Shown here: positions 2,525 through 63,894 of the stretch, in pieces
Layout of the letters: each line of letters begins with the position of its first letter
Numbering within the stretch: position 1 is the stretch's first letter
Assembly (NCBI GenBank): GCA_947588685.1
Contig: CANPYM010000004.1
Coordinates: forward strand, 1,091 to 65,090
Direction of reading: 5' to 3'
Origin: an uncultured Bacilli bacterium
GTDB lineage: Bacteria > Bacillota_I > Bacilli_A > RF39 > UBA660
Length of the DNA: 64,000 bases
Notes under the pieces: model-generated
Told to the model about the DNA's origin: nothing
The model's database searches: none
What the model saw: only the letters and a program-made list of their open reading frames with translations
Program-made: the position numbers and the translations under genes

Positions 2525-3521
2525 TGTATATATTTTAGGCATAGAATCTAGTTGTGATGAAACGAGTGTATCAATTGTTAAAAATGGTGAGGAAGATATT
2601 GCTACAGTTGTTTTATCACAAATGGATACCCATGCTAATTATGGTGGCGTTGTTCCCGAGATTGCCAGTAGGATGCATGTTGAAAATATTACGATGGTCA
2701 TTGAGGAATGCTTAAATAAGGCTCATATGACGATGGATGATATAACAGCTATTGCTGTAACTTATGGACCAGGTTTAATTGGTTCTTTGCTTGTAGGGGT
2801 AACGGCAGCTAAAACGCTTGCCTACGTTTATAATAAACCCCTTGTACCTGTTCATCATATTGCTGGTCATATCTACGCTAATAACTTAACGAAAAAGATG
2901 AGTTTCCCCCTTATAGCTTTAGTTGTCAGTGGGGGACATACGGAACTTATTTATATGAAAGATAACTATAGCTTCGAAAAAATTGGTGGAACCTTAGATG
3001 ACGCTGTCGGTGAAGCTTATGATAAGGTAGCGCGCATTGTTAAAGTTCCATATCCTGGTGGACCATTAGTTGATAAAATGTCTTATCAAGGAGAGGATAA
3101 TTATGATCTTCCTTTACCCCTTGATGACGATTCATACAATTTCAGTTTTAGTGGCTTAAAGAGTGCGGTTATTAATCTTGTTCATAATGAAGAACAAAGA
3201 GGACATACTATTAATAAGGAAGATTTAGCTTGTTCTTTCCAAAAACGCGTTGTGGATATTTTAACCAAGAAGACTATGCGAGCTTTAGAACATTACAATG
3301 TTAAGAATATGATTATCGCTGGTGGGGTGGCTGCTAATAGTGGCATTAGAACTAAATTTACAGAGTTATGTGCTGAAAATGGTGTTGATCTTACGATACC
3401 AGAGTTTAAATATTGTACGGATAATGCGACGATGATTGCAGCGGCAGGATTCTTTGCCTATGAAAAAGGTAAAAGAGCTGACCTTGACCTAAAAGCTAAA
3501 GCTAATACAAAATTAGAATAG
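2514..3521 (+). CDS. tsaD: t6A tRNA threonylcarbamoyltransferase TsaD
   Basis: GIESSCDET, GGVVPEIASR, HHIAGH, SGGHT, TDNATMIA motifs. Confidence 0.98.
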   Translation: MKNDVYILGIESSCDETSVSIVKNGEEDIATVVLSQMDTHANYGGVVPEIASRMHVENITMVIEECLNKAHMTMDDITAIAVTYGPGLIGSLLVGVTAAKTLAYVYNKPLVPVHHIAGHIYANNLTKKMSFPLIALVVSGGHTELIYMKDNYSFEKIGGTLDDAVGEAYDKVARIVKVPYPGGPLVDKMSYQGEDNYDLPLPLDDDSYNFSFSGLKSAVINLVHNEEQRGHTINKEDLACSFQKRVVDILTKKTMRALEHYNVKNMIIAGGVAANSGIRTKFTELCAENGVDLTIPEFKYCTDNATMIAAAGFFAYEKGKRADLDLKAKANTKLE

Positions 3522-4293: not shown

Positions 4294-5661
4294 ATGGCTG
4301 AAGAAAATATGAAACATATGCCTCAATTTGTTCGCACGGGATTTTTATGGCAAATTGAGGGGGGACATGTTTTAGTTAAACAAAATAGATGGGGTAATAA
4401 TGGTAAAATTCGGGCCGTTGCCAAGTTTTTTTATGATAGGAAAGTAATTGAAGAAAAAAAGTCTCTTAGTGAACTATCTAATGATGAATTAAGACAAGAA
4501 CTTAGAAATGCTGAAAGAACATCTGAAGAAATTGAAATGATTAGAAGTGAGCTCTCTTATCGTAGACGTTTATGGGTACGTCAATTATCTGACGAACAAT
4601 TAGAAAGTAAAAAAGATGAAACGGGAAGCCAATTACAAAGAGACTTAATCAATGCAGAAATTGAATATCGCAAAAGTAGAAGAGACAATAATCTTCCTCT
4701 TGAAGAAGTACGAAGGGATGAGAAGCTTCAAGACTATAAATTAACTTTTGTACATGAAAAAAGATTCAAGGGATTTAAAACTAAAAATGGTGCCCGTATT
4801 GTATGGCCTTGGGAATCAGGTATCGTTTTATCAACTGGTACAGTTACCATTATAACACCAGCTATTTCTGAAATTTCTAGAGATAAAGTTAGGGTAACAT
4901 TTGATACAAACTATATGTATCATGTTGCGGATCCTGAATTATTTGCTTTTAGAATTAATGAGCACAGAGGTGTTTCTGGTGTTGAAAGACAAATTGGTGT
5001 TTTGCTAGATAATGATGTTCGTGAATATGTAAAGTCGGTTTCAGCCGATACGTTTAGAGAAAAAGGTTATAAAGCATTGAAAACACTGCTTCGGTCTAAA
5101 ATTAGCGAAGTAGAAAAAGATTATGGTATAGAACTAGAAGATTTTACCTTAAGTAAAATACAATTGCCAAATGAGATACTTGAAAGAGAGGATGAACTAA
5201 AAGCTGCCGAAGCTGAATCTTCAAGAAAAATAAAGTTAGCTAAAGCAGAGGCAGAAGCTGCTAAGATAAAAGCAGAGGCAGATGCATACGCTGCTAGACT
5301 AAGTGCCGAGGCACAGGCATATAAAGATCAAAAACGGCTTGAAGCAGCAATAGAAACAGTAAAAACTTTAGGTTTACCACTTGACCCTAACCAGTTAGCA
5401 GCAATAATGGCTGCAACGGCAGCCGACAGTAACGTTGTTGTCAATACTTCTGGCGATGCATCTAAAATGGATACTACAACTGCTGTTGTGACATCGCAAC
5501 AAATCGGAAAAGTTAGTCAAAAGCAACAACAAGGACAAGATCAGCAGCCAACTCAGCAACAAGGTCAACCACAACCACCTGCTCCAACTACTCCAACTAC
5601 TCCAACTACTCCAACTGATGGTGATAAAGTATCAAACGATGGAAAAGCAAGAACCCGCTAA
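4294..5661 (+). CDS. divergent SPFH/band-7 domain protein with insertion and Q/P/T-rich tail
   Basis: GARIVWPW, SRDKVRVTFD..YHVADPE, YGIELEDF..I.LP and an AEAEA coiled coil; no obvious TM anchor. Confidence 0.75.
   Translation: MAEENMKHMPQFVRTGFLWQIEGGHVLVKQNRWGNNGKIRAVAKFFYDRKVIEEKKSLSELSNDELRQELRNAERTSEEIEMIRSELSYRRRLWVRQLSDEQLESKKDETGSQLQRDLINAEIEYRKSRRDNNLPLEEVRRDEKLQDYKLTFVHEKRFKGFKTKNGARIVWPWESGIVLSTGTVTIITPAISEISRDKVRVTFDTNYMYHVADPELFAFRINEHRGVSGVERQIGVLLDNDVREYVKSVSADTFREKGYKALKTLLRSKISEVEKDYGIELEDFTLSKIQLPNEILEREDELKAAEAESSRKIKLAKAEAEAAKIKAEADAYAARLSAEAQAYKDQKRLEAAIETVKTLGLPLDPNQLAAIMAATAADSNVVVNTSGDASKMDTTTAVVTSQQIGKVSQKQQQGQDQQPTQQQGQPQPPAPTTPTTPTTPTDGDKVSNDGKARTR
5584..5616 (+). 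repeat. 9-bp tandem repeat (CCAACTACT)x3.7 encoding PTT
   Basis: Read directly from the sequence. Confidence 0.9.
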
Positions 5662-5676
5662 TAAAGGAAACAATCT

Positions 5677-5964
5677 ATGAATATATATGATAAAGATGAA
5701 CTAATGGCTCTAGCTGAAAAGTTAAATGATAAGATGCCATATGCTCCAGCATTAGAAGAACAATTATGTGAGGCATATCATCTTGTTAGTAAAGATGGCT
5801 ATTTTAATCGTGATGATTCTTTGGTTTTAGCAGAACTTAAAGGCGAAGAACTAGAACCATTTATGGTTTATCCTCGCGCTTTTGTTAAGCCATCAGAAAT
5901 GATTCAACTTATTTTAAGAACGAGGTTTAATAATCTTGAAGATGAGCAAACTAAAACAAAATAA
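5677..5964 (+). CDS. hypothetical protein
   Basis: 95-aa ORF with AAGGA RBS, directly after the SPFH gene. Confidence 0.65.
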   Translation: MNIYDKDELMALAEKLNDKMPYAPALEEQLCEAYHLVSKDGYFNRDDSLVLAELKGEELEPFMVYPRAFVKPSEMIQLILRTRFNNLEDEQTKTK

Positions 5965-46641: not shown

Positions 46642-49600
46642 ATGAAAAATTTTAAAGAATTAGACAAACGCCCTGTTAGTGAAGTTGAAGATAGTATTAG
46701 AGCTTCTTGGGGTAGTATCAATGATATGCATAATAAACAAGTAGAAATGCATAAGGATGATGAGACTTTTGTCTTCTATGATGGGCCTGCCTTTGCTAAT
46801 GGGTTCCCAGGCCTACATCATATGGTTAGTAAAAACCTTAAAGATGCCGTAACTAAATACCAAGTTATGAATGGTAAGAAAGTTATTCGTAAAATCGGTT
46901 GGGATACACATGGCTTACCAATTGAAAATCACGTTGAGAAAAAACTTGGTATTTCATCTAAAAAAGAGATTGAAGAATTAGGTGTAGCTAAGTTTAATGA
47001 AGAATGCCGTCATAGTGTTCGGGAAAATGAATCAGCCTTTACTGATTTAACTAGTAAAATGGGTCAATTCTTTGATGTTGAACATCCATATTTAACTTAT
47101 AAGAATGAATACATTGAAACCGAATGGTGGATTTTAAAACAGATGTATGAAAAAGATATGTTCTATGAAGGAACAAGGGTTGTACCTTATTGTCCACACT
47201 GTGGAACAGGGCTAGCTAGTCATGAGGTTGCGCAAAACTATCAAACTGATACCGCTATTACTGTTTATGTACCATTTAAAAAGAAAGACGAAGATGTATA
47301 TTTCTTAGTTTGGACAACAACCCCTTGGACTTTAATTGCCAATGTCGCTTTATGTGTTCATCCTGATGAAGATTATGTTTTAGCTGAATCTAAAGGTCAT
47401 AAGTTTATCTTAGCTAAAGCTTTACTTAGCCAAGTTTTAGGTGATGAAGCAACTGTTTTAGAAACATATAAAGGTAAAGATTTAGAATATGTTGAATATG
47501 AACAATTAATTCCATCTTTTGATGTTGATAAAAAAGCTTTCTATGTAACGTGTGATGAATATGTAACGATGGAAGATGGTACGGGTATCGTTCATATTGC
47601 TCCAGCCTTTGGTGAGGATGATGCTAATGTCGGTAAGAAATATGATCTTCCATACTTAAATCCGGTTGGTAAAGATGGTTGCTACGTCGGGGGAATGTGG
47701 GATGGCCGTTTTGTTCACGATGTTAATGAAGACGTTGTTGAATATTTAAAGGCTAACGATAAGTTATTCCGTCGTCAAAAGATTAGCCACGAATATCCAC
47801 ATTGCTGGCGATGTGATACACCACTTATCTATTATTCAATGCCAAGTTATTATATTAAAGTAAGTGAGATGACAGATGATCTTGTTAAGGCTAACGCTGA
47901 AGTTAATTGGTATCCAGCACACGTTGGTGAGAAAAGATTTGCTAACTGGTTAGCTAATGCTAGAGATTGGAATGTCTCACGGAGTCGTTATTGGGGTAGT
48001 CCAATCCCATACTTTAAGTGTGAATGTGGCTATAATCATATGGTTGGTTCGATTGCCGAATTAAAAGAAATGGCTACTAAAGGAATTGGTGATGACTTTG
48101 ATTTACATAAACCATATATTGATGAAGTTCATCTAAAATGTCCAAAATGTGGTGGGGAAATGACTAGAATACCAGATGTTTTGGATTGTTGGTTTGACTC
48201 TGGTTCTATGCCTTTTGCCCAATATCATTACCCATTTGAGAATAAAGAATTATGGGAAAGCCAATTCCCAGCTGATTTTATCTGTGAAGGAATCGATCAA
48301 ACTAGAGGTTGGTTTTACACTTTACTTATCATTTCTGTCTTTGTCAAGGGTGTCTCACCATTTAAGAATGTTCTAGTAAACGATTTATTACTCGATGCTG
48401 AAGGTAAGAAAATGAGTAAATCACGTGGTAACATTGTCGAACCATTTACAACCATTAAAGACTATGGTGCTGACACAGTTAGATTCTATCTTCTTTATGT
48501 CTCACCAGTATGGACGCCATTAAAGTTTGATATGGCTGGTTTAAAAGAAGTTTATTCAAAGTTCTTTAACCCATTAAAGAATACATATAGCTTCTTTGCT
48601 ATGTACGCTAATATCGATGCAATCGATACGGATGAATGCAATATTGAATATAGTAAAAGAGAAGAAATTGACCGGTGGTTATTATCTAAATATAATAAAC
48701 TAGTTCGGGATGTTAGAGCTGATTTTGATGAATATGATTTAAATAAAGTTGTTCATCATCTAGCTAACTTTGTATCTGATGATTTATCTAACTGGTATAT
48801 TAGACGTAATCGTAACCGTTTCTGGGGCAGTGAATTAGATGATTCTAAGAAGAGTGTTTACCGGACAACTTATGAAGTATTAACGAGCTTAGCTAAGTTA
48901 ATCGCTCCAATCACCCCATTCTTATCTGAGGAATTATATCGTAATTTAACTGGTGAAGAATCTGTTCATTTTGCTAGTTATCCTGTATGTGATGAGTCTT
49001 TAATTGATGAACACGTTGAAGAAAGAATGGATCTTGTAAGAAGCTTAATTTCCGTTGGCCGTTTTGTTCGGGAAGAGACAAAAATTAAAGTTCGTCAACC
49101 ACTTAAAGAAGCTCTAATTGATGGTAAAAATAAAGATTTAATTGAAGATTTAGTACCTTTAATTAGTGAAGAGTTAAATATTAAAGAAGTTCTATTTGTC
49201 GATGATTTAAATGAATATATGAATATTTCTTTAAAACCTAACTTCAAAGAAGTGGGTAAAGTTTTAGGTTCTCTTATGAAAGAGTTCCAAGAAAAACTTG
49301 CATCTTTAAGCTTAGATGAAGTTAATCTTCTTCAAAAAGGCGAGACTATCAAGATGACTTTAGGTGGAGAGGAAAAAGAGATCACTCCTAATATGATTGA
49401 TATTCGTATTTCTAGCAAGGAAGGCTTTAATGTCGGTATGGAAAACAATAATTTTATGATTATTGATACAACTTTAACTGATGACTTAATTTTAGAAGGT
49501 ATTGCTAGAGAACTTGTTTCCAAAGTTCAAAACTTAAGAAAACAAAGTGATTTTGAAATAACCGATCGCATTAAACTATATTATCATAGTGATGATTTAG

Positions 49601-49737
49601 TTAATGAAGCTATCAATAACTTCAAAGACTTCATTATGGGAGAAACTTTATCTTTAGAGTTAAATGAAAGTGATGACGCTAAAGAAGAGTTTGATTTAAA
49701 TGGTCATACTTGCTTAATTAAAATTGAAAAAGCTTAA
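46642..49737 (+). CDS. ileS: isoleucine--tRNA ligase, type 2 (eukaryote-like)
   Basis: DGP..ANG.PGLHH, GWDTHGLP, DW..SRSRYWG, EGIDQTRGWFY, KMSKS; long IleRS2-type C-terminus without the zinc finger. Confidence 0.97.
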   Translation: MKNFKELDKRPVSEVEDSIRASWGSINDMHNKQVEMHKDDETFVFYDGPAFANGFPGLHHMVSKNLKDAVTKYQVMNGKKVIRKIGWDTHGLPIENHVEKKLGISSKKEIEELGVAKFNEECRHSVRENESAFTDLTSKMGQFFDVEHPYLTYKNEYIETEWWILKQMYEKDMFYEGTRVVPYCPHCGTGLASHEVAQNYQTDTAITVYVPFKKKDEDVYFLVWTTTPWTLIANVALCVHPDEDYVLAESKGHKFILAKALLSQVLGDEATVLETYKGKDLEYVEYEQLIPSFDVDKKAFYVTCDEYVTMEDGTGIVHIAPAFGEDDANVGKKYDLPYLNPVGKDGCYVGGMWDGRFVHDVNEDVVEYLKANDKLFRRQKISHEYPHCWRCDTPLIYYSMPSYYIKVSEMTDDLVKANAEVNWYPAHVGEKRFANWLANARDWNVSRSRYWGSPIPYFKCECGYNHMVGSIAELKEMATKGIGDDFDLHKPYIDEVHLKCPKCGGEMTRIPDVLDCWFDSGSMPFAQYHYPFENKELWESQFPADFICEGIDQTRGWFYTLLIISVFVKGVSPFKNVLVNDLLLDAEGKKMSKSRGNIVEPFTTIKDYGADTVRFYLLYVSPVWTPLKFDMAGLKEVYSKFFNPLKNTYSFFAMYANIDAIDTDECNIEYSKREEIDRWLLSKYNKLVRDVRADFDEYDLNKVVHHLANFVSDDLSNWYIRRNRNRFWGSELDDSKKSVYRTTYEVLTSLAKLIAPITPFLSEELYRNLTGEESVHFASYPVCDESLIDEHVEERMDLVRSLISVGRFVREETKIKVRQPLKEALIDGKNKDLIEDLVPLISEELNIKEVLFVDDLNEYMNISLKPNFKEVGKVLGSLMKEFQEKLASLSLDEVNLLQKGETIKMTLGGEEKEITPNMIDIRISSKEGFNVGMENNNFMIIDTTLTDDLILEGIARELVSKVQNLRKQSDFEITDRIKLYYHSDDLVNEAINNFKDFIMGETLSLELNESDDAKEEFDLNGHTCLIKIEKA

Positions 49738-49740
49738 TAT

Positions 49741-49777
49741 AAAAGCTAACCTGAAATTGTCTAAGGTTAGCTTTTTT
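49741..49777 (+). terminator. ileS terminator
   Basis: AAAAGCTAACCT-loop-AGGTTAGCTTTTTT. Confidence 0.8.
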
Positions 49778-49782
49778 GATAT

Positions 49783-49948
49783 CATTTAGTATTCAACTTA
49801 AAGACCATCGCTATGTTGAATATCTTATTATTTTATATACTATAATTTTATCATATATAATTAATCATTACAACGATTATCATCTTTTATTGCTTTAAAT
49901 TTCACAAAAAAACTTAAAGATTTAAGTCTTTAAGTTGAATACTAAATG
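49783..49948. repeat. 23-bp perfect inverted repeats flanking a 120-bp segment that carries a minus-strand promoter (candidate invertible promoter)
   Basis: CATTTAGTATTCAACTTAAAGAC (49783-49805) and GTCTTTAAGTTGAATACTAAATG (49926-49948). Confidence 0.85.
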
Positions 49949-50097
49949 GTTAGTTAATATTAGTACAATATAAAGTTATGATATAAACAACTTAAGTATA
50001 AAAATTAAATTACCGGTAATAAATAAATATAGTAATAAATAATATCTAACCAAATTATTTAAAACTTTAGCTGATGAAGATTTGGAGTGGATAATAA

Positions 50098-53000
50098 ATG
50101 CTGAAAAGAAGAAAAATTAAAAGAAAATGGATAAATATTTCTCTAGCAATTCTTTTAGTAGCGCTTATTTTAACAGGTACGGGGATAGTGGTTAATGTCA
50201 CTAATTTTTTAAGTGGTCAAAAGTTAAGTGGTAATAACTTTGGTAATCGTTTAGTTGATCCTAATACAATGGATTCATATAAAGACGAATTATTGAATGA
50301 TAAGAATGGATCACGTTATGCTGGAAGAATTTGGTCGGATAAGACTACCCTTTTAGATAAAGTTGATCTTGATATGGAAACAGATGGAATCTCTAAAACA
50401 ATTAATGGCAATTCAGAGTTCATTCAAGTCTTTTCTACTTTAGGAAGTAGTGAGCAAAAGGTTGATGTAATTAAAAATCCATTAGATTTGGTAATTGCGA
50501 TTGATTTGTCATCTTCAATGGGGCGTGATTCTGTCGATGATGGTTGGACACCGGAGGATCAAAATATTAGACTTTCTCACTCCCGAATTTATGCTACTGT
50601 TCAGGCTGTTAATGAAGCTATTGATGCTTTAATGGAGAAAAATCCTGAAAATCGTATTGCGGTTATTGGATATGGCGCTAATGCGACGGTCTTACTACCT
50701 TTAGGGCAATATAAGCGAAATGAGAAAGCTGATTATATAACAATTGAAGGTCTTCGTAGCGTTTTTGGTGATAATCCTAATGCTGATGGAAAGTTTACTT
50801 ATCAAGCTGATTGTTTTTTTGAACTTTCAATCAATGCTTTAAAGAAAAATGGGAATACTTATGATCCAATTCAAAAAAAGATTACTAATCATCCTGATGT
50901 TGTTAGTGGAAATGGGGCTCAAGAAACAATTGGCTTTCTTACTAATATGCAAGGTGGCATTTATCTTGGCCTTAATGAATTAACTTCAACCGAAGAAGCT
51001 ACATATACAACAGAACAAAATGGTAAAAGAATAACTATTGCAAGAATACCTGCCATCTTTATTATGACTGATGGTGGTTCTAATTTTGCCTTTAGAAAAG
51101 AAGGCGATAATCCTAAAATACCTGATAATAAAGGTGATGAATGGTATAACGTTTATATCCCTGAACCAAGCCTTGCCGATCAATATATTTATTTTGGTTA
51201 TCCTGATGCAAACGCTAGTGGTGTTTTATACTCTAATGATTCAAGTATTGATGGCGCACCAGGTATTATCTTAGAAAACTTGCTAACTTCTTCATATATG
51301 AAGTTAAAAGTTGAAAAACATTATACAGCTTTACAAAAGAAGGCTGGAATTAGTGATGCTAAAGCAAAACTTAATGTTCAAACGATTGGTGTTGATTTAA
51401 AAGATACACCAGCTTGGGCAAGATCAAGATTGTATATTTCATTGGATCCTGAAAATTATTTTAAAGAAGATTTAACTACTGATAATGATAAGTTCCTTTC
51501 TGAAACAGAAATTGAAACAGTTATGAAAGATACTTTAGATAGTTGGAATATTTTGAAGCAAAAACAAAGTACCAAAGTTAAAATAGGTTTTATGCAAAAG
51601 CCAAAAGATCCTGATAAATATATAAATATTGCGCCAATTCCAGAAGAAGGTATCGGTTCTGGTGAAGAGAAGATAACGATGGATGAGGTTATTGAAAATA
51701 TTAATTATGCTGATAATTTTAGTGATATATCTAGTAATGGTGGTCAACTAGAACAGTTATTCCTTAATGTTATTCAGAACCTTGATGGTGAGGCTTCTAG
51801 TCCAATTAGTGGAACTAACGAAGCTGGTGTTAGCGATTCTTTAATGTATTCAGACCCAATGGGTAAATATATGGAAATTAAAAGAAATGGTCTCACCATT
51901 GATGGCGAAAAGTATGATATGAGCTTACTTTTGTTTGGTAAATTACATAATATGCGTAAAGCTGCCGTTTATGATTATACATTCAATAGCACCCACAGAG
52001 GTCCAAATCATAACAGTGATGATATGGCTTTAGGCTTTACTAGTGGTTGGTATGATAAAGAAGGAAATTATCTAGAAGATGGTGGATCTTGGGATAAGGG
52101 TGATACTTATTATGCTGATGTTACCCAAGTTCAAAAATATATTCCAACTTTAGATGAGTCAAGTAATATTACCCCAAAACAAAAGAAAACTATTTATACT
52201 TTGTATAGTTTTGTTGATAAAGAAGACGAAGAACAAATTAATCCATCATATGAAGATGAAAGCGTCAAATATAAAGTTAATGATATTCGGGTTTGGACAG
52301 AGTATACGGGTAATTATGTCGATGAAGATCCAAGCGCTAACCCTAACTTAGGTTTCGATGAAGCTTTATATGTTAATATTCCAACGACAGCTTTACCACT
52401 TCAAATGGTTAAACTATATGTTGAAAGTGATGGCAGCATTTCTGATTATCAAACGAATTTAAATAACTATATAGCCTCAACACCACTTCGTTTATTTTAT
52501 AGTGTTGGTGTTTCATCACAAGTTATGACTGAAGATGGCTTAGATCTTGATTTAGCTAAAATAAATCAAGAATACATTCAAAAAAATAAAGTTAATGACA
52601 CAATTAGATTTTATGCCAATTATTATAGTAATACGAAGTATGATGGTTATTTAACTGATACTGAGGTAGAACGAACAAGGGGAGATGCTAGTGTTAGTTT
52701 TTCACCAAGTGCTACTAATCGTTATTATACATATCAAAAGCCATTACCATTATATGAAATGGCTATCAGTGATATACCGGATGAAAATGGCTTATATAAA
52801 TCTCTTGAATTAGGTACTAAAGAAGAATACGAATTATTTAAAAGTACCCATAAAACAATATCTAATAGTTCATCATTTGATGATAATAAATGGTATTATA
52901 TCGTTGTTGATTATTATATGCCAGGAAAAAGTGAAGCTATGCATTTAGCTGTTCCAAGAGAAGGTAAAGAGTTTGGCTCTGGTATCGGTGATGGAACTAT

Positions 53001-56000
53001 TAAAAAGGGTGAATATTTAGAGTGGTATAGTGAAAAGACTGATACTTCGGCTACCTTTGATGCTTCCGAGGAAGCACCAAGTGATGCAGATGATTATGTT
53101 ATTGCTACGCGTCCTGGTGGTTTAAGAGTCGGCGATTTAGCGCAAAATCTAAGAGGTAAGACGAATAATGCAACCCAAACAGCTTATAATTATTATTTAC
53201 CAACGATAAGTTCATCAACAAGTGGCTTTAAGACGCGCGATAATAATGTTATTATTAATATTTTCTTAGGAAATAATGGTCGTTTGGATGTTAATGATTC
53301 TCTTATGATGATTGCTAAAGAAGTAAAGACTGATACATTCAGTGAAAAGACTATCGATAGATCACGTGATTATCAATTTGAAGTTAAAATTGATGGCCAT
53401 GAAGGGGATTATAGTGCGATTAAAATGTATAAAAACCCTTATAGTAATGAATGGCAACTTCGCCTTAGTACCATTGATATCCTAACTGATAATGATGGTT
53501 TCTTACAAGATAAGGATACGAAGTTATATGTTTATGAAGATGGTGGCCAACAGTATTACGTTTATATCGGTGATAATGAAATAGATGGTGATACCGGTGG
53601 CGATGATGTTTTTAGAGTATATTCAGCTCCTGATAATGATAATCACATTGAACTAACGAAATCGGGAATGACAACTTATGTAACCGATCCAAATACGATT
53701 GATGGCGCTACTGCATTAAATAAATATAAAGCGGTTGATGATAATCATACTTTAGGCTCAATTGATTTTTGGATTGATAAAGTATACTTAATTCCAACCA
53801 ATATTGTTGATGAAAAAACTTGGAATCATTCATTAGAAGGTTATAAAACATTAACAGAGTTTGTTGTGGCACATTTGGATTCTATGAAAAAGGGTGTTGA
53901 TGAATTAACAACATCATATAAAACAGAAACAACATATTTAACAACGACCCTTAAATTTGGTTATACTGCTCAAAACAAACCAGAAACAAAACCAAATAGT
54001 TGGACCGATGATGAATGGGATAGTCAAAAAGAACATATTGCTAAATTAGTTTTAAAAGATAATGAAGGGATTATGTTATCAGGACTAAAATCCGGCGTAA
54101 ACTATGAGACTGTAGAAGAGATAACAAATAAAGATAATAAAGAAGGATATTATTTTGAAGAGATTAAACTAGGTGAAGAAGATATGGCCACGATAACTGA
54201 TAAGACGGTTAAAGGAAGAGTAAACGCAAATTATATTGATGAAGTAGAATACATTAACCGCTATTATGCACCGACTAGTTTAGCTATTAAAAAGACCGTT
54301 AGTGGTTTATTAGGTGAGAAAGAAAAAGACTGGACGTTTGATCTTACTATTACCTTACCACCTTCTGCTGTCATTCTTGATAGTTATGATTATCATTATG
54401 ATGTAATTGATGGTGTTACAAAAAGAGCTGATGGTAAGATAACTTTTGAAAGTCTTACTGACAATCATTATTTAGCTCATCTATCTATTAAACATGGTGA
54501 GACACTTGTAATTGAAGGTCTTCCTGAAGGAACAACCTATGAAGTTAGTGAAAATGATGCTAATCAGAATGGATATGTAACAACATCATTAAATGAAGTA
54601 GGTACACTAAGGCCTACTCAAACTGATGTAAGTTTTGAAAATAGTAAAATTGCTAAAAGCGATTTAACAATTACTAAAGAAGTTCAGGGCTTGTTAGGCG
54701 ATAAAGAAAAAGAATGGGAATTTGAAGTTACTTTAAAGCCAAGCATAGAACAAGACTTCCCAACGAATTATGTCTATACTGGTACTAAGAATGGTACATT
54801 GGAATTAACTCCAAAAGAAGATGCTTATGTTGGTAAAATAACTTTGAAACACAATGATACAATTACTATTAAAGATATTCCTGAAAATACAACTTATGAA
54901 ATAAAAGAGTTAGATGCTTCAAAGGATGGATACATTAGTAATGCTCAAAATGCAACCGGTCTTATCAAGGGCGAAGGCGTTTATGAAGTTCGCTTTACGA
55001 ATATTAAATATGAACGTCATAGTCTTACTATATCTAAAGAAGTAACTGGTAGCGCTGGTGATAAGAATAAAAATTGGAAGTTTAAAATCGTCTTCACACC
55101 AGATACAGATGTCATTTTTGATAAAAGCTATCCATATGATGGTGGTACTTTAGAGCTAACGGAAAAAGATGGAAAGTATACAGGTGAAATAACTTTAAGA
55201 CATAACGAGAGTATAACAATTAAAAATATTCCAGAACGAACTAATTATGACATTGAAGAAGTAGAAGCTAATGCAAACGATTATCAGACATTTATAACAG
55301 GTAATCAAAGTGGAATTATGAATGATGATGTGACCGTTAAATATACAAATCGTAAATTATCAAAACAAGATTTAACGATATCTAAAGAAGTAACGGGAGC
55401 ATGGGCTAATAAAGATAAAGAGTGGACTTTTACAGTTAAACTTACGCCTAGTAAAGATGTTTATCTAAATGGTTTTTATCATTATGAAGGCAGTAAAGAA
55501 GGCGAGATGGAGTTAACTAATAATTCGGGTATCTATACAGGTAAAATTACTTTAAAAAGTGGGGAGAGTATAACACTTAAAGAAATACCTGAAGGAACAG
55601 CTTACGAAGTTAGCGAAGATGACGCCAATACTGACGGGTATACGACAAGAGTAACAGGGGATACTAAAGGTGTATTAACTTTCAATACCCCAACGCCACA
55701 TATAGCTTTTGAAAATATTAAATTATCAAAGCATAGTTTAACAATATCAAAAGAAGTAGCTGGTGGCGCCAGTGATCCTGATAAAGAATGGACTTTTAGC
55801 CTTACTTTAACTAGTAAAGATGGTGTTACACTATTAGATAGCTATCCTATTTTAGGTGGTAATACAGCCAGTGAAGTAAGTGTTATTGATGAAAAACGTT
55901 TAACACTAGAAAAAGAAAGTGATACTAAAGCTAAAGCAACCTTTAAATTAAAGGGTGGTCAATCGATAACTATCAATGATTTACCAGAAGGTACAACTTA

Positions 56001-57333
56001 TGAGGTTAAAGAACTAGAAGCCAATACTGAAGGCTATGACACTAGAATTACTGGTGATGAAAAAGGTGTTTTAGAAAATGTGGATACCAAGTCCGTTAAG
56101 TATGTTAACCATAAAGCACTTAAATACGATCTATCTATTGGTAAAGTTGTAAAAGGTGGAGCTGGTGAAAAAGATGCATCTTGGACCTTTAATATTACAT
56201 TGACACCAATGGATGGGGAAGAACTATTAACTACTTATCTTGTTGAGGGTATTGAGCCAAGTCTTATCAGTTTAACCCGTACCGAAGATGGCTATAAAGG
56301 CTCATTATCATTAAAACATGGTGATACAGCAACGATTAAAGGTATACCTGAAAATACGGGTTTTAAAATTGAAGAAGAAGAAGCCAATAAAAATGGATAT
56401 ATAACTGAAGTAAATAACCCTAATACAGGTATACTAGATAAGCAGTTAGATCCAATAATCTTTACTAATACTAAACTAGCTAAATATAATTTAACAATTG
56501 TTAAAACTGTTAAAGGTAATTTGGGTGACAAAGATAAAGAGTGGACCTTTAAAGTTTTATTAACCCCACCAACAATTAAAGATTTAGATAAAGAATATGC
56601 TTACACTAAAGAAGATGCTCACGGAACTAATTTAGATGGTAAGATGTCTTTAAATAAAGTATCAGATCATTATGAGGGTGAGATAAGCATAAAAGATCAA
56701 GAAAAAATAACCATTAAAGATTTGCCAGAAGGAGCGACATATCAAGTTGTGGAACAAGGTGCTGAAGATGATGGTTATAAGGTAGCCACCGGTAACGATA
56801 ATGGTATTTTAAATGATCATCAAATGGTAAAAGTTACTAATACCAAAGTTTCATATCATGATTTGCAAATTGAATCGCATTTAAAGGGTAATAATTCAGA
56901 TCCTGAAATCGAATGGGATGTTGAAGTAACATTAACACCATCTTCTGATAGTGGATTAGAAGATAGTTATGTATGGGTTGATGATGATGGTGTATCACAT
57001 CTTCTTCCATTAACACCAAACGATGATGGAACTTATACAGGCCACTTATCTTTAAAAGGTAATAGTCATGGAACAATTAAGGATTTACCATATGGAACAA
57101 CCTATGAAGTTAAAGTTCAAAATGCTAATCAAGACGGTCATAAGACAACCATTGATGAGAATAGTGGTGTTTTATCAGAAAATATGGAGGTTACTTTTAC
57201 AAATGAGCGTAATTTGAAAATACCAAATACCTTAGATGATATTATGAAATATATAATTATCTTTGTTATGGCTCTAATAATTAGTAGCTGTGGTCTATAT
57301 TTATATTTACAAAAAAGAGGAACTAACAATTAA
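50098..57333 (+). CDS. giant surface adhesin: vWA domain plus ~8-9 CnaB-like Ig repeats plus wall/membrane anchor
   Basis: Signal/TM segment, MIDAS DLSSS..T..TDG, repeats L.I.K.V.G...W.F...I..LPEG..YEV.E...F.N, C-terminal IPNTLD + TM + KR. Confidence 0.85.
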   Translation: MLKRRKIKRKWINISLAILLVALILTGTGIVVNVTNFLSGQKLSGNNFGNRLVDPNTMDSYKDELLNDKNGSRYAGRIWSDKTTLLDKVDLDMETDGISKTINGNSEFIQVFSTLGSSEQKVDVIKNPLDLVIAIDLSSSMGRDSVDDGWTPEDQNIRLSHSRIYATVQAVNEAIDALMEKNPENRIAVIGYGANATVLLPLGQYKRNEKADYITIEGLRSVFGDNPNADGKFTYQADCFFELSINALKKNGNTYDPIQKKITNHPDVVSGNGAQETIGFLTNMQGGIYLGLNELTSTEEATYTTEQNGKRITIARIPAIFIMTDGGSNFAFRKEGDNPKIPDNKGDEWYNVYIPEPSLADQYIYFGYPDANASGVLYSNDSSIDGAPGIILENLLTSSYMKLKVEKHYTALQKKAGISDAKAKLNVQTIGVDLKDTPAWARSRLYISLDPENYFKEDLTTDNDKFLSETEIETVMKDTLDSWNILKQKQSTKVKIGFMQKPKDPDKYINIAPIPEEGIGSGEEKITMDEVIENINYADNFSDISSNGGQLEQLFLNVIQNLDGEASSPISGTNEAGVSDSLMYSDPMGKYMEIKRNGLTIDGEKYDMSLLLFGKLHNMRKAAVYDYTFNSTHRGPNHNSDDMALGFTSGWYDKEGNYLEDGGSWDKGDTYYADVTQVQKYIPTLDESSNITPKQKKTIYTLYSFVDKEDEEQINPSYEDESVKYKVNDIRVWTEYTGNYVDEDPSANPNLGFDEALYVNIPTTALPLQMVKLYVESDGSISDYQTNLNNYIASTPLRLFYSVGVSSQVMTEDGLDLDLAKINQEYIQKNKVNDTIRFYANYYSNTKYDGYLTDTEVERTRGDASVSFSPSATNRYYTYQKPLPLYEMAISDIPDENGLYKSLELGTKEEYELFKSTHKTISNSSSFDDNKWYYIVVDYYMPGKSEAMHLAVPREGKEFGSGIGDGTIKKGEYLEWYSEKTDTSATFDASEEAPSDADDYVIATRPGGLRVGDLAQNLRGKTNNATQTAYNYYLPTISSSTSGFKTRDNNVIINIFLGNNGRLDVNDSLMMIAKEVKTDTFSEKTIDRSRDYQFEVKIDGHEGDYSAIKMYKNPYSNEWQLRLSTIDILTDNDGFLQDKDTKLYVYEDGGQQYYVYIGDNEIDGDTGGDDVFRVYSAPDNDNHIELTKSGMTTYVTDPNTIDGATALNKYKAVDDNHTLGSIDFWIDKVYLIPTNIVDEKTWNHSLEGYKTLTEFVVAHLDSMKKGVDELTTSYKTETTYLTTTLKFGYTAQNKPETKPNSWTDDEWDSQKEHIAKLVLKDNEGIMLSGLKSGVNYETVEEITNKDNKEGYYFEEIKLGEEDMATITDKTVKGRVNANYIDEVEYINRYYAPTSLAIKKTVSGLLGEKEKDWTFDLTITLPPSAVILDSYDYHYDVIDGVTKRADGKITFESLTDNHYLAHLSIKHGETLVIEGLPEGTTYEVSENDANQNGYVTTSLNEVGTLRPTQTDVSFENSKIAKSDLTITKEVQGLLGDKEKEWEFEVTLKPSIEQDFPTNYVYTGTKNGTLELTPKEDAYVGKITLKHNDTITIKDIPENTTYEIKELDASKDGYISNAQNATGLIKGEGVYEVRFTNIKYERHSLTISKEVTGSAGDKNKNWKFKIVFTPDTDVIFDKSYPYDGGTLELTEKDGKYTGEITLRHNESITIKNIPERTNYDIEEVEANANDYQTFITGNQSGIMNDDVTVKYTNRKLSKQDLTISKEVTGAWANKDKEWTFTVKLTPSKDVYLNGFYHYEGSKEGEMELTNNSGIYTGKITLKSGESITLKEIPEGTAYEVSEDDANTDGYTTRVTGDTKGVLTFNTPTPHIAFENIKLSKHSLTISKEVAGGASDPDKEWTFSLTLTSKDGVTLLDSYPILGGNTASEVSVIDEKRLTLEKESDTKAKATFKLKGGQSITINDLPEGTTYEVKELEANTEGYDTRITGDEKGVLENVDTKSVKYVNHKALKYDLSIGKVVKGGAGEKDASWTFNITLTPMDGEELLTTYLVEGIEPSLISLTRTEDGYKGSLSLKHGDTATIKGIPENTGFKIEEEEANKNGYITEVNNPNTGILDKQLDPIIFTNTKLAKYNLTIVKTVKGNLGDKDKEWTFKVLLTPPTIKDLDKEYAYTKEDAHGTNLDGKMSLNKVSDHYEGEISIKDQEKITIKDLPEGATYQVVEQGAEDDGYKVATGNDNGILNDHQMVKVTNTKVSYHDLQIESHLKGNNSDPEIEWDVEVTLTPSSDSGLEDSYVWVDDDGVSHLLPLTPNDDGTYTGHLSLKGNSHGTIKDLPYGTTYEVKVQNANQDGHKTTIDENSGVLSENMEVTFTNERNLKIPNTLDDIMKYIIIFVMALIISSCGLYLYLQKRGTNN

Positions 57334-59577: not shown

Positions 59578-61290
59578 ATGGAAAAGAAATTAACGGAACA
59601 AGATGTTGTCAATGACTTTTTAAATAATGATTATACACCGGCGGAATTAGCTAGGTATTATGATAAAGTCTTCTTCCCGGGAAGATTAAGTGCTAAAACA
59701 ATTAGTTCCATTTTAAAGACGAGTTTATATGCGAAAGAACATAAAGATGAAATTGCTGCTAAGATGGCCTCTTTAAGTAAAAGAGTCAATAGTGGTAATA
59801 CGGTAACAGTAGAAGAAGTATATCGCCGAATTGATCAAGAATTAAGTAAGATTGTTCACGATGAAAGTCTTATTAATAAACATAATATTATGATGTTACG
59901 TTGTACATATCTTTATATTAGTGGTTATAATTATGCGGAAATATCAAAGATTTTATATTTATCTAAATCAACGGTTTCTAAATATATTGGTGAGGTCTTA
60001 TCTGCTGGATTACTTAATGAGATTACTAAATCTTTACTTCAAGATCGTCGTCAAGATAAGGGTAAATATAATCCAAATCATCTAAATGAAGCTATTTTAA
60101 AAGTTGTCAAAACATTTATTGAAACTGGTGGTGATTATAAAAAAACTATTCAAATTAGTGGTATATCTGATCGAACCTTAACGAGATACTTAGCTCATCC
60201 GGAATTAAAAAGTATTATCGGCGATGAAGCTTTTGAGCAAGTTAAAAGACTTGTTCGACAAAGAAACGTCGAGCAGGCTCACCGCGCTACGGAAGTATCG
60301 ATGCGAAACCAAAATATTCGTACGGCTTTAGCTAAAGCTAAAACACGTAGTAAAAGTCGTCAAGTTTTAGAACTTATGTTATTAGATGGCTTAACCGATC
60401 TTAAAAAAATAGCAGCTTTAGTAGATGTTCCTGAAAGTTATATTTTAAGATTATTAGATAAAACTGAAGAAATAGAATATACATATGGCGAATACGTCTA
60501 TCAAGAACTTTTAATATATAAGAAATCTTTACCAAAAAAGGATATCAATCCTTATGATGATACTAAATTAGATTTAATTAAAGCATATTTAGGTAGCAGG
60601 TATCGTTTAGATGACTTTATGTATGAATATCATCTAGGTACCGAAAACTTACGACAATATTTCTTTGGTAGTGGCAATCCTACTTCTGCTAGTCCCGAAG
60701 AGTGGGAAACGTTAAAAGGATTGGTTGATAATCACATTTCAGAAGTAACTACTATTTATAAACGTTGTCCTCGTGATAAAAGGGTTATTGATCGCTTTGA
60801 TTTAGTAGCTATAGCTGATGAGAAAACTTTCTATGTTACTGATACCGAGTATAAATTGCTTAATAATGTTGCTATGTATTTTGCCTGTGATGGCAATTTA
60901 GGACTATGTGCGGAAAAGTATCATGTCAACTATGCTTTTGCATACAATAGTTTATCCTCACCAATTCTTCAAGTTCTTTTATCAGATGATGCTTACCATC
61001 GTTTGCAGACATATTTAAAATATGAAGATATTATTACTTCCGCCGAACATTTAGCTAATAAAAGAGATTTACTTCGTTTGGTAGTAACGTCTTTAAACAA
61101 TAATAAAGATGATGTGGCTAAAACTCTTGATACTTTTGATATGCCCGTTGAGGTATTAAAACGGTTATTAAAAGATGATGTCGCAACCCAATTATATGCT
61201 TCTGAAGCTGTAGCGCAACTATTAGAACGCGTTGATGCTTATGAGGCATCTCTTAAGGCTAAAGCTAATTCTAAGGAAAAACAAAGATGA
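59578..61290 (+). CDS. hypothetical protein with several HTH-like repeats
   Basis: GYNYAEISKILYLSKSTVSKY, GISDRTLTRYL, LKKIAALVDVPESYI segments. Confidence 0.65.
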   Translation: MEKKLTEQDVVNDFLNNDYTPAELARYYDKVFFPGRLSAKTISSILKTSLYAKEHKDEIAAKMASLSKRVNSGNTVTVEEVYRRIDQELSKIVHDESLINKHNIMMLRCTYLYISGYNYAEISKILYLSKSTVSKYIGEVLSAGLLNEITKSLLQDRRQDKGKYNPNHLNEAILKVVKTFIETGGDYKKTIQISGISDRTLTRYLAHPELKSIIGDEAFEQVKRLVRQRNVEQAHRATEVSMRNQNIRTALAKAKTRSKSRQVLELMLLDGLTDLKKIAALVDVPESYILRLLDKTEEIEYTYGEYVYQELLIYKKSLPKKDINPYDDTKLDLIKAYLGSRYRLDDFMYEYHLGTENLRQYFFGSGNPTSASPEEWETLKGLVDNHISEVTTIYKRCPRDKRVIDRFDLVAIADEKTFYVTDTEYKLLNNVAMYFACDGNLGLCAEKYHVNYAFAYNSLSSPILQVLLSDDAYHRLQTYLKYEDIITSAEHLANKRDLLRLVVTSLNNNKDDVAKTLDTFDMPVEVLKRLLKDDVATQLYASEAVAQLLERVDAYEASLKAKANSKEKQR

Positions 61291-62493: not shown

Positions 62494-63894
62494 ATGAGAA
62501 TAGAACTATTGTGTGGAAAAAATATTGAAGAAAGAATAAAAGCGGTTGCAGCAGCGGGAAAGCTATCAAGGACAAAAGGAAATGTTTTTGATGTTTTAGA
62601 TAGCTGTGAGGTATATGAAAAGAATCTAGGCCTTGTTAAACGTATCATCGGAATGGGCCATAAGTCAATTATGGAACATGACTATTTTGTCTTTGCCTTA
62701 AGTGATGTGACGCCGATTGTTGAACAGACCATTATCAGTTATCGCTTGACATCTTTTACAATCAAATCAGGACGGGAAGTTGACTTTCGAAGTGTCGGCT
62801 ATTATGTACCAACCTTTAAAGATGTAAAGGGAAATATTCTCGAAAATAATGATGAATTGGTAACTAAATACAAAAATCATATGGATTATTTGTTCCAGGA
62901 ATATGGCAAGTTAGTTGACGCTGGTATTAAAGAAGAAGATGCCCGTTTTGTCTTACCATATTCGTTTCATACCAACATTATTATGGGGTTAGATGCTAGA
63001 GAGCTAGACCGTTTAACTAATGAATTATTATTTGGTAAACTTAGTAAAATTGATGAGTTAAAAGAATTAGGTAATTATCTTTTAGATATTATAAAAAAAT
63101 ATATTCCTTATTTAGAAGATCATATTAAGGGCCATGACGTGAGTTCTGATGACTGGTACGATGCCTACCGAACGCAAGGTAAGATTAAACCTTATGATAA
63201 AGTAGAACTTACTTATTATACGCCCAAGGTCGATGATGTTATCATTGAAAGTACGATTATGTATCATGAACAGGTAACGAAAAAAGAAGCTCATCAAATC
63301 TTATTAAAATTAAAAAAGAAAGACCCAATGGTTATGGCTAAGATGATGGATGATATTAAGCACTCTAATGAACAAAGAGAGTTAGAACAAGTTCATTTTC
63401 AATTTACCATTCCTATTTCTTTAATTGTTTTAAAGCATTTAACCCGTCACCGTATGCAGTCTTTGCTTATTCCAACTTTTGTGCCAATGTGGGATTTAGA
63501 TAATTACGTTATCCCACCAAGTATTCGTAAAAGTCATTTAAAACATTATAAGGAAGTTCAAAAAAGAAATCTTGATGTTTATAACACCTTTAAAGAAGCA
63601 GGTGTTCGTGATGAAGATTTAATTTATTTTTATCTATGTGGGACAGCCGTTAATGTTATGACGGATATGAACGCGAGATCTCTAGAATGGATAAGTAGAA
63701 TGCGCTGCTGTACAAAAGCCCAGTGGGAAATTAGGGCTATTGTTAGTGAAATGGTTAAATTAGTAGGGGAAGTTGCGCCTTTATATAAGAACCTTTTAGG
63801 AGCTAGCTGTATAGCTTTAGGATATTGTCCAGAGGGTAAAGAAAGCTGTGGCCTTATTAATCGTTTGGAGGAGAAAAAATGCAAGGAAAATTAA
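62494..63894 (+). CDS. thyX: FAD-dependent thymidylate synthase, tandem double-domain form
   Basis: GHKSIMEH, EDARFVLP, LTRHR, MNAR, R.C..AQWEIR motifs. Confidence 0.88.
   Translation: MRIELLCGKNIEERIKAVAAAGKLSRTKGNVFDVLDSCEVYEKNLGLVKRIIGMGHKSIMEHDYFVFALSDVTPIVEQTIISYRLTSFTIKSGREVDFRSVGYYVPTFKDVKGNILENNDELVTKYKNHMDYLFQEYGKLVDAGIKEEDARFVLPYSFHTNIIMGLDARELDRLTNELLFGKLSKIDELKELGNYLLDIIKKYIPYLEDHIKGHDVSSDDWYDAYRTQGKIKPYDKVELTYYTPKVDDVIIESTIMYHEQVTKKEAHQILLKLKKKDPMVMAKMMDDIKHSNEQRELEQVHFQFTIPISLIVLKHLTRHRMQSLLIPTFVPMWDLDNYVIPPSIRKSHLKHYKEVQKRNLDVYNTFKEAGVRDEDLIYFYLCGTAVNVMTDMNARSLEWISRMRCCTKAQWEIRAIVSEMVKLVGEVAPLYKNLLGASCIALGYCPEGKESCGLINRLEEKKCKEN

Follow-up and report, generated by a model that had tools for sequence, protein, structure and literature searches.

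The window analyzed here is a stretch of 64,000 nucleotides (nt) from contig CANPYM010000004.1 of an uncultured gut Bacilli bacterium, and its subject is inv1, a cassette of 166 bp (49783-49948) that lies between ileS and the gene for a very large surface protein. The upstream neighbor ileS (46642-49737, plus strand) encodes isoleucyl-tRNA synthetase, with the Pfam domains tRNA-synt_1, Anticodon_1, and DUF5915. It is followed by a hairpin (49741-49775) with 12-nt arms, an 11-nt loop, and a T run, which is likely a terminator; this hairpin is missing from the output of a terminator scan because its stem is AT-rich. On the other side of inv1, a leader of 149 nt (49949-50097, plus strand) with a GGAG ribosome-binding site at 50084-50087 leads to the gene that the cassette would control (50098-57333, plus strand). 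Its product of 2411 amino acids (aa) has eight DUF7601 and five DUF5979 domains and a weak VWA_2 match (24.4 bits, under the 27-bit cut-off); it begins with an N-terminal signal or transmembrane segment and ends with IPNTLD, a hydrophobic transmembrane stretch, and a basic tail. The domains suggest an adhesin, and the protein is called adhesin-like here in that predicted sense.

inv1 consists of a left arm, CATTTAGTATTCAACTTAAAGAC (49783-49805), and a right arm, GTCTTTAAGTTGAATACTAAATG (49926-49948), each of 23 nt and 100% complementary to the other, around a segment of 120 bp (49806-49925). The sole extended -10 motif of the cassette is on the minus strand: TTGTAA-17 nt-TGaTAAAAT (49845-49873), with the -35 hexamer at 49873-49868 and the -10 hexamer at 49850-49845, points to ileS and has the hairpin ahead of it. 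An earlier note on this DNA had described perfect 23-bp inverted repeats around 120 bp, a minus-strand promoter with extended TG facing away from the adhesin, and an ATG about 150 bp past the right repeat; the arms, the promoter motif, and the start codon, at 50098 and 149 nt beyond the right arm, all agree with that description.

The repeats of inv1 are beyond chance. Allowing up to three mismatches, the arm occurs at just two sites in the window, which 0 of 100 shuffles matched; the genome scan proposed by the earlier note likewise finds it at those two sites only in the whole 1.16-Mb assembly that holds the window (G000; 1,157,396 bases, 30 contigs, 88.7% complete). A genome-wide scan of G000 for exact inverted repeats with a gap of 40-700 nt gives inv1 as the longest pair, the repeat lengths being 23, 19, 18, 17, and 16 nt and then six of 15 nt; 15 block shuffles of G000 gave no pair of 19 nt or more, and one 18-nt pair in 2 of the 15.

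Both orientations at the ileS-adhesin locus

In nature inv1 occurs in both orientations at the same ileS-adhesin locus; when orientations are compared, as the earlier note had suggested, both forms are read from contigs between the same flanks, with the segment reverse-complemented in a relative (G019) and in public run X6, and not in the window and run X3. G019, a different species of the same genus, is the only one of 41 related genomes searched that has intergenic DNA homologous to inv1. Its contig C7 runs from the end of ileS through the terminator and the left arm into the reverse complement of 49868-49925, and ends exactly at ...TTGTAA; its contig C21 starts within the right arm and enters the adhesin gene. 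The segment is therefore inverted in G019, with the assembly broken inside the cassette. In the leader of G019, 49949-49995 is divergent and 49996-50097 is conserved.

Fourteen public runs cover part of the stretch, all as Logan contigs; they come from five studies on gut metagenomes, those of rabbits included. The parts covered in four of these runs (X1, X2, X3, and X6) were compared in detail with the window. In X6 record 30 (451 nt), 49783-49912 read on the minus strand continues into 49996-50265 read on the plus strand, a joint of opposite strands that represents the inverted form on the adhesin gene. X3 record 20 (323 nt) spans 49711-50036 and is colinear with the window. The X3 record carries G019-like variants, of which 49859 A>T, 49860 A>G, and 49885 T>A are common to X3 and X6; the window form in X3 and the inverted form in X6 therefore represent both states within one lineage.

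The two remaining runs bear on single samples. X1, which is 100% identical to the window and possibly the sample from which it came, has contigs that end at 49805, span 49776-49948, and restart at 49919, and X2 record 13 is exactly 49783-49948. In a graph simulation with k=31, the window form alone gives no break, because the 23-nt repeat is shorter than k-1. Adding the left junction of the inverted form gives exactly the breaks 49805/49776 and 49948/49919, as in X1, and adding both junctions gives a central unitig of 49783-49948, as in X2 record 13. The contig breaks of X1 and X2 argue, indirectly, for mixed orientations within single samples.

A family of cassettes with a common arm frame

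Scanning G000 with part of the inv1 arm identifies two further cassettes, inv2 and inv3; no spaced inverted repeats in the genome are longer than those of inv1, inv2, and inv3, and the arm motif is common to all three. inv2 (C3:60-228) has 18-nt arms, AAGTAATAAACTTAAAGA, and a gap of 133 nt, and lies ahead of a gene for a 2385-aa VWA/DUF7601 protein on another contig (C6:1-7183); C3 and C6 overlap by 77 nt, and the start of C6 coincides exactly with an inv2 arm. inv3 (C7:14331-14503) has 19-nt arms, TTAAGTAACTAACTTAAGG, and a gap of 135 nt, and lies 21 nt from the start of a gene for a 1002-aa DUF7601 protein; its promoter motif, TTGCAT-17-TGaTAAAAT, is aimed at the gene in both G000 and G019. 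Three of the four DUF7601 paralogues of G000 thus have their own cassette. The fourth, a VWA/DUF7601 gene on C3 (more than 1865 aa; 5598-5743 of its locus, minus strand), is without one; behind a terminator it has a fixed promoter-like site, TGaTATAAT, instead. One C-terminal layout recurs in the proteins of the inv1, inv2, and inv3 genes (57150-57333 in the window for inv1): NERN-x-K/I-IPNT(L/I)D comes first, then hydrophobic residues, and last a tail of basic residues. The canonical LPXTG is absent from these three C-termini; the layout might serve as a variant sorting signal or simply anchor the protein by its C-terminus.

Comparison with G019 reveals a second independent inversion: its inv2 has identical arms and near-identical flanks, and the segment is reverse-complemented relative to G000. 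The orientation of inv3 is the same in the two genomes. In a direction-adjusted MAFFT alignment of the cassettes, inv1 in reverse complement lines up with gene-oriented copies, namely inv3 of G000 and G019 and inv2 of G000, and the -35 and -10 hexamers of inv1, inv3, and inv2 fall in the same alignment columns. Because its promoter aligns with the gene-directed promoters of inv2 and inv3, inv1 as found in the window is read as the OFF state. The predicted states are then OFF, ON, and ON for inv1, inv2, and inv3 of G000, and ON, OFF, and ON for those of G019. The occurrence of both orientations and this alignment of promoters support the earlier note, which had proposed an inverton in the OFF orientation.

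The motif TTAAGTANNNAACTTAA was counted at up to one mismatch in 20 genomes of the genus, with the reversed pattern as control. Forward plus reverse counts are 5+4 in G000 (control 0+1), 2+5 in G019 (control 2+0), 4+5 in G004 (control 3+3), and 31+34 in G009 (control 2+1), and are near control level in the other 16 genomes. Cassettes number three in G000, three in G019, three in G004, and at least 15 in G009. In the last genome, 15 cassettes were verified in 12 regions; their arms measure 15-22 nt and their gaps 137-151 nt, and the motif counts suggest that there are more. Several of the G009 cassettes stand in tandem gene-cassette-gene-cassette arrays; downstream of each of the 15 come one conserved leader, common to all, and a homologous gene start, and the full-length genes encode proteins of about 668 aa, three of which were scanned and have no Pfam family above cut-off. 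The window adhesin has an orthologue in G004 that matches it at 95% identity from position 50079 on and follows a different upstream gene; a cassette of its own, whose arms are 20 nt long, lies about 20 nt from the ribosome-binding site. One G004 cassette (3001-3156 of its locus) lies between two divergent large open reading frames of at least 975 and 986 aa, where one inversion could swap expression from one gene to the other. Across the family, cassettes measure 156-193 bp, and all 23 complete ones are directly 5' of a gene start; every copy precedes a surface-protein gene. An extended -10 motif (TTG/TTT-N3-N14-TGnTAnnAT) occurs once per cassette, on a single strand, in 20 of the 22 cassettes scanned; both inv2 copies carry TTGTAA-17-TAAGAT in its place.

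Adhesin homologues are also found in G008 and G017; among six loci there, the four with at least about 390 nt of upstream DNA have no repeat, and contig ends truncate the other two. A search of metagenome contigs with a 21-nt internal stretch of the cassette gave four loci, all of which were rejected as chance matches with no homology beyond the 21-mer.

The arms of the 23 complete cassettes share one palindromic frame. TTAAG, 7 nt, and CTTAA are found at up to one mismatch in 44 of the 46 arms, the two not picked up being the left arms of the two inv2 copies; the fuller frame is (T)CC/TCT-TTAAG, 7 nt, CTTAA-GG/AG. The 7-nt spacer is asymmetric and is identical in both arms of one cassette, and it differs between cassettes: the spacers are distinct in three of three cassettes in G000 and three of three in G004, and there are 11 distinct ones among the 15 of G009. 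The core site of a tyrosine recombinase consists of two inverted binding elements around an overlap region of 6-8 bp, which must match between partners. In sequence, the arms of the family have this layout, with inverted elements and an asymmetric spacer identical in partners, and strand exchange is therefore placed, as a prediction, within TATTCAA (49790-49796) and its partner (49935-49941). The likely crossover site of inv1 is then TTTAG-TATTCAA-CTTAA within each arm; its parts are TTTAG (49785-49789), TATTCAA (49790-49796), and CTTAA (49797-49801) on the left, and TTAAG (49930-49934), TTGAATA (49935-49941), and CTAAA (49942-49946) on the right. The earlier note had placed a recombinase core site elsewhere, at the inner palindrome of 49911-49936 (AACTTAAAGA/TCTTTAAGTT, or AACTTAAAGAttt/aaGTCTTTAAGTT). 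This palindrome is present in the inverted-pair listing and partly repeats the inner end of the arm. As a core site it was rejected: it is not kept in the G019 copy of inv1, and comparison of the 23 cassettes puts the site within the arms. Because it is not conserved in G019, the palindrome is probably incidental or accessory.

Candidate recombinases

The earlier note had found no recombinase in the window and had supposed that one acts in trans; there is indeed none in the window or on C4, and action in trans is proposed because no recombinase is nearby. A scan for invertases, also among its suggestions, identifies four PF00589 genes and one PF00239 gene in G000, on contigs C1, C2, and C25. 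Y1 (C25; 291 aa) is an XerD equivalog and Y2 (C1:9310-10143; 277 aa) is XerC-like. Y3 (C2:30406-31383; 325 aa) combines PF00589 with Phage_int_SAM_3 and adjoins three open reading frames of about 100 aa. Y4 (C1:73229-74071; 280 aa) is a further tyrosine recombinase, and S1 (C1; 533 aa) is a large serine recombinase.

Y3 has the catalytic R...HxxR...Y residues in its sequence, and its best solved relatives are XerC-like, Tn1549-Int, and XerA proteins. Orthologues of Y3 occur in G019 (97% identity), G004 (58%), and G009 (54%, with four paralogues at 37-42%); among the 16 other members of the genus, G013 alone has an orthologue and the rest have matches of 39% or less. Just three types, XerC-like, XerD-like, and Y3, are common to the four cassette-bearing genomes, and Y3 is the best candidate because it is the only non-Xer type among them. 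Still unproven, it is given a chance appreciably short of even as the enzyme that acts on the cassettes; an unassembled or other enzyme is considered equally probable, and the Xer pair is thought an unlikely choice.

Two other candidates were rejected. Y4 has a counterpart of more than 31% identity in G000 alone in the genus-wide comparison and was set aside as a shared invertase. Y4 and S1 lie within 8 kb of each other (C1:73229-81201), in what is probably a strain-specific mobile element, because none of the other 19 genomes in the genus has a Y4 orthologue. A serine invertase system of the Hin/Gin type was rejected as well: G000 and G009, whose assemblies are 87-89% complete, yielded no small serine invertase (about 190 aa), and their only serine recombinases are large, of 533 aa in G000 and 524 aa in G009.

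Interpretation of the cassettes and comparison with known switches

The window sequence 49783-49948 is very probably a promoter inverton, captured in the OFF state, that gates the gene of the 2411-aa surface protein. In the proposed mechanism, a site-specific recombinase encoded elsewhere in the genome would exchange strands in the 7-nt spacer of the quasi-palindromic core TTTAG-TATTCAA-CTTAA; exchange in both 23-nt arms would flip the 120-bp segment. In the orientation of the window, the single minus-strand promoter would fire at the ileS terminator and leave the adhesin-like gene OFF. Inversion would move the -10 hexamer to the plus strand, at about 49881-49886, and transcription in the ON state would pass through the right arm and a leader of, by arithmetic, about 205 nt into the VWA/DUF7601 gene. 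Each cassette of the family would gate one surface-protein gene individually.

Several observations weigh against this interpretation or parts of it. Promoter activity and the assignment of ON and OFF are predictions from consensus and homology, and the number of promoter-like matches in this AT-rich DNA, nine, compares with 6.0 +/- 2.1 in shuffles. A plus-strand TTTATA-18-TATAAT (49832-49861) also lies within the segment; the variants at 49859 and 49860 in X2, X3, and X6 break its -10 hexamer, and none of the variants listed, beyond which there are 51 more, falls in the minus-strand hexamers. In G009 the promoter motif faces away from the gene in 15 of 15 cassettes, and it faces away from the adjacent gene in all three G004 cassettes as well, which may reflect either a majority-OFF state of a large family or a mistaken reading of ON and OFF in those genomes. 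Support for the inverted form in the window's own lineage (X1) is indirect, all four runs being contigs. As for the recombinase, the Y3 orthologue of G013 (59% identity) is in a genome that has no cassettes of this motif; the co-occurrence of Y3 with cassettes is not independent evidence, because the genomes are kin; and no cassette site is found beside any recombinase gene in the 11 loci around Y3-type genes.

The segment might invert and yet switch the gene by means other than an internal promoter, through an orientation-dependent terminator or leader with the promoter outside, as in the cwpV switch of Clostridioides difficile. The long leader of 149 nt, with its proximal 100 nt conserved in G019, would suit such an arrangement; against it, the sole outside promoter-like match (49954-49982) falls in 49949-49995, a stretch that G019 does not conserve, the G004 orthologue leaves no room for an outside promoter between its ribosome-binding site and a cassette about 20 nt away, and the family as a whole keeps one extended -10 motif in each cassette. 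A leader switch is accordingly considered very unlikely. Only a trace more improbable still is inactivity: the two orientations could be an old fixed polymorphism, or the product of rare illegitimate recombination between the repeats, rather than of an active and reversible switch. Direct sight of both states does come from assemblies and contigs of different samples, which counts in its favor, but both states occur inside the G019-like lineage (G019 and X6 versus X3), the signatures of mixed states at contig breaks are found within single samples (X1 and X2), two cassettes (inv1 and inv2) differ in state between G000 and G019, and contig ends coincide with cassettes in both of these assemblies.

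Two further explanations deny the switch altogether, and neither is given more than the slightest probability. The earlier note had offered a miniature inverted-repeat transposable element (MITE) as its alternative, and a MITE family that happens to sit near surface-protein genes would explain why several copies resemble one another in size (156-193 bp) and in their terminal inverted repeats. This alternative fails on three counts: the flanks of inv1, inv2, and inv3 have no target-site duplications (direct repeats); the 5' position is constant in the complete cassettes, with the same leader and start following 15 of 15 in G009; and where orthologous copies differ, the arms are retained and the segment between them is exactly inverted. 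Phage and plasmid collections, searched by blastn in distant mode, gave no match either. The repeats might instead form a structure in RNA (a long stem-loop, attenuator, or small RNA), since a transcript of the region could fold into a stem of 23 bp; the Rfam search, run at E up to 1, gave no family, however, and an RNA stem does not account for a reverse-complemented segment between retained arms in relatives.

If inv1 is a promoter inverton, the cassettes may belong to a larger design, which is put forward tentatively and at just under an even chance. In this lineage of rabbit-gut Bacilli with reduced genomes (1.1-1.4 Mb), three to at least 15 genes would form a multi-inverton regulon with one frame (TCCTTAAG...CTTAAGGA), served in trans by one domesticated tyrosine recombinase like the Int of Tn916/Tn1549. 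The spacers would act as insulation in the manner of heterospecific lox sites, confining recombination to a cassette's own pair of arms without rearrangement across cassettes, and the whole would be convergent with the mpl system of Mycoplasma penetrans. What goes beyond an ordinary inverton is the family-wide palindromic arm with cassette-specific spacers and, in the roughly 1.1-Mb genome of G009, the high density of switches.

The cassettes would be assigned to a kind, the promoter inverton, and not to any named family; their likeness to known systems would be one of design. In Escherichia coli, fimS is a promoter segment between short inverted repeats that is inverted by the tyrosine recombinases FimB and FimE and gates an adhesive surface structure; it occupies one locus, next to its recombinase genes, and its 9-bp repeats enclose a segment of 314 bp. 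Unlike fimS, the cassettes described here have no adjacent recombinase gene, and their arms have the palindromic TTAAG-7-CTTAA frame. RecV-dependent switches of C. difficile control cwpV (a surface protein), flgB, pdcB, and others, and several of these act through the leader and not the promoter. The C. difficile repeats differ between loci and are not known to have one shared palindromic frame, and the common frame of the present cassettes would set them apart. The Mpi system of Bacteroides uses a serine recombinase, whereas G000 and G009 have no small one; the phylum and the targets, which in Bacteroides are polysaccharide loci, also differ. Passages of published work describe multiple short invertible sequences upstream of genes, subject to site-specific recombination, in C. 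difficile, a Firmicute (PMC9286219); dispersed promoter invertons of Bacteroides that have a common repeat consensus, respond to a globally acting recombinase in trans, and control surface structures (PMC2268961, PMC11892184); and invertons near surface genes as common in gut bacteria (PMC11892184).

The closest analogue, by likeness of design only, is the set of multiple promoter inversions of the M. penetrans mpl genes (P35 family). Two sources describe many paralogous surface-protein genes, partly in tandem arrays and at several loci, each turned ON and OFF independently of the others by its own small invertible promoter, on which tyrosine recombinases encoded elsewhere are proposed to act (PMC2268961, PMC10502178). 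The present family resembles mpl in layout: a cassette accompanies three of four paralogues in G000 and, in G009, no fewer than 15 genes, some of them in tandem gene-cassette-gene-cassette arrays. In contrast to the mpl lipoproteins, the products here are VWA/DUF7601 proteins of wall-anchored type and 668-aa proteins without a Pfam family; the host, unlike M. penetrans, is an uncultured lineage of rabbit-gut Bacilli with SepF and DivIVA genes, and the repeat sequence differs. A literature search, with supplements outside its scope, found no published description of switches in this lineage.

Phase variation is thus well supported in an uncultured, genome-reduced lineage of gut Bacilli, whose giant VWA/DUF7601 adhesin-like proteins would be expressed heterogeneously. 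The arm consensus with variable spacers is a simple sequence rule for finding further switches, and the variable spacers themselves suggest a hypothesis on how one recombinase could serve many invertons without scrambling a small genome. Flipping of invertons also explains the contig breaks at these loci in metagenome-assembled genomes.

The surroundings of the locus provide three minor observations. Between lepA and a HemN-like radical-SAM gene lies an open reading frame of 570 aa (59578-61290), whose only matches, weak ones to helix-turn-helix domains, are all below their cut-offs. Another, of 466 aa (62494-63894), has two Thy1 (ThyX) stretches and is about twice the usual length. Just past the end of the window, a perfect 33-nt inverted repeat with a 4-nt loop (G000 C4:66481-66550) is the longest hairpin in the genome-wide scan.

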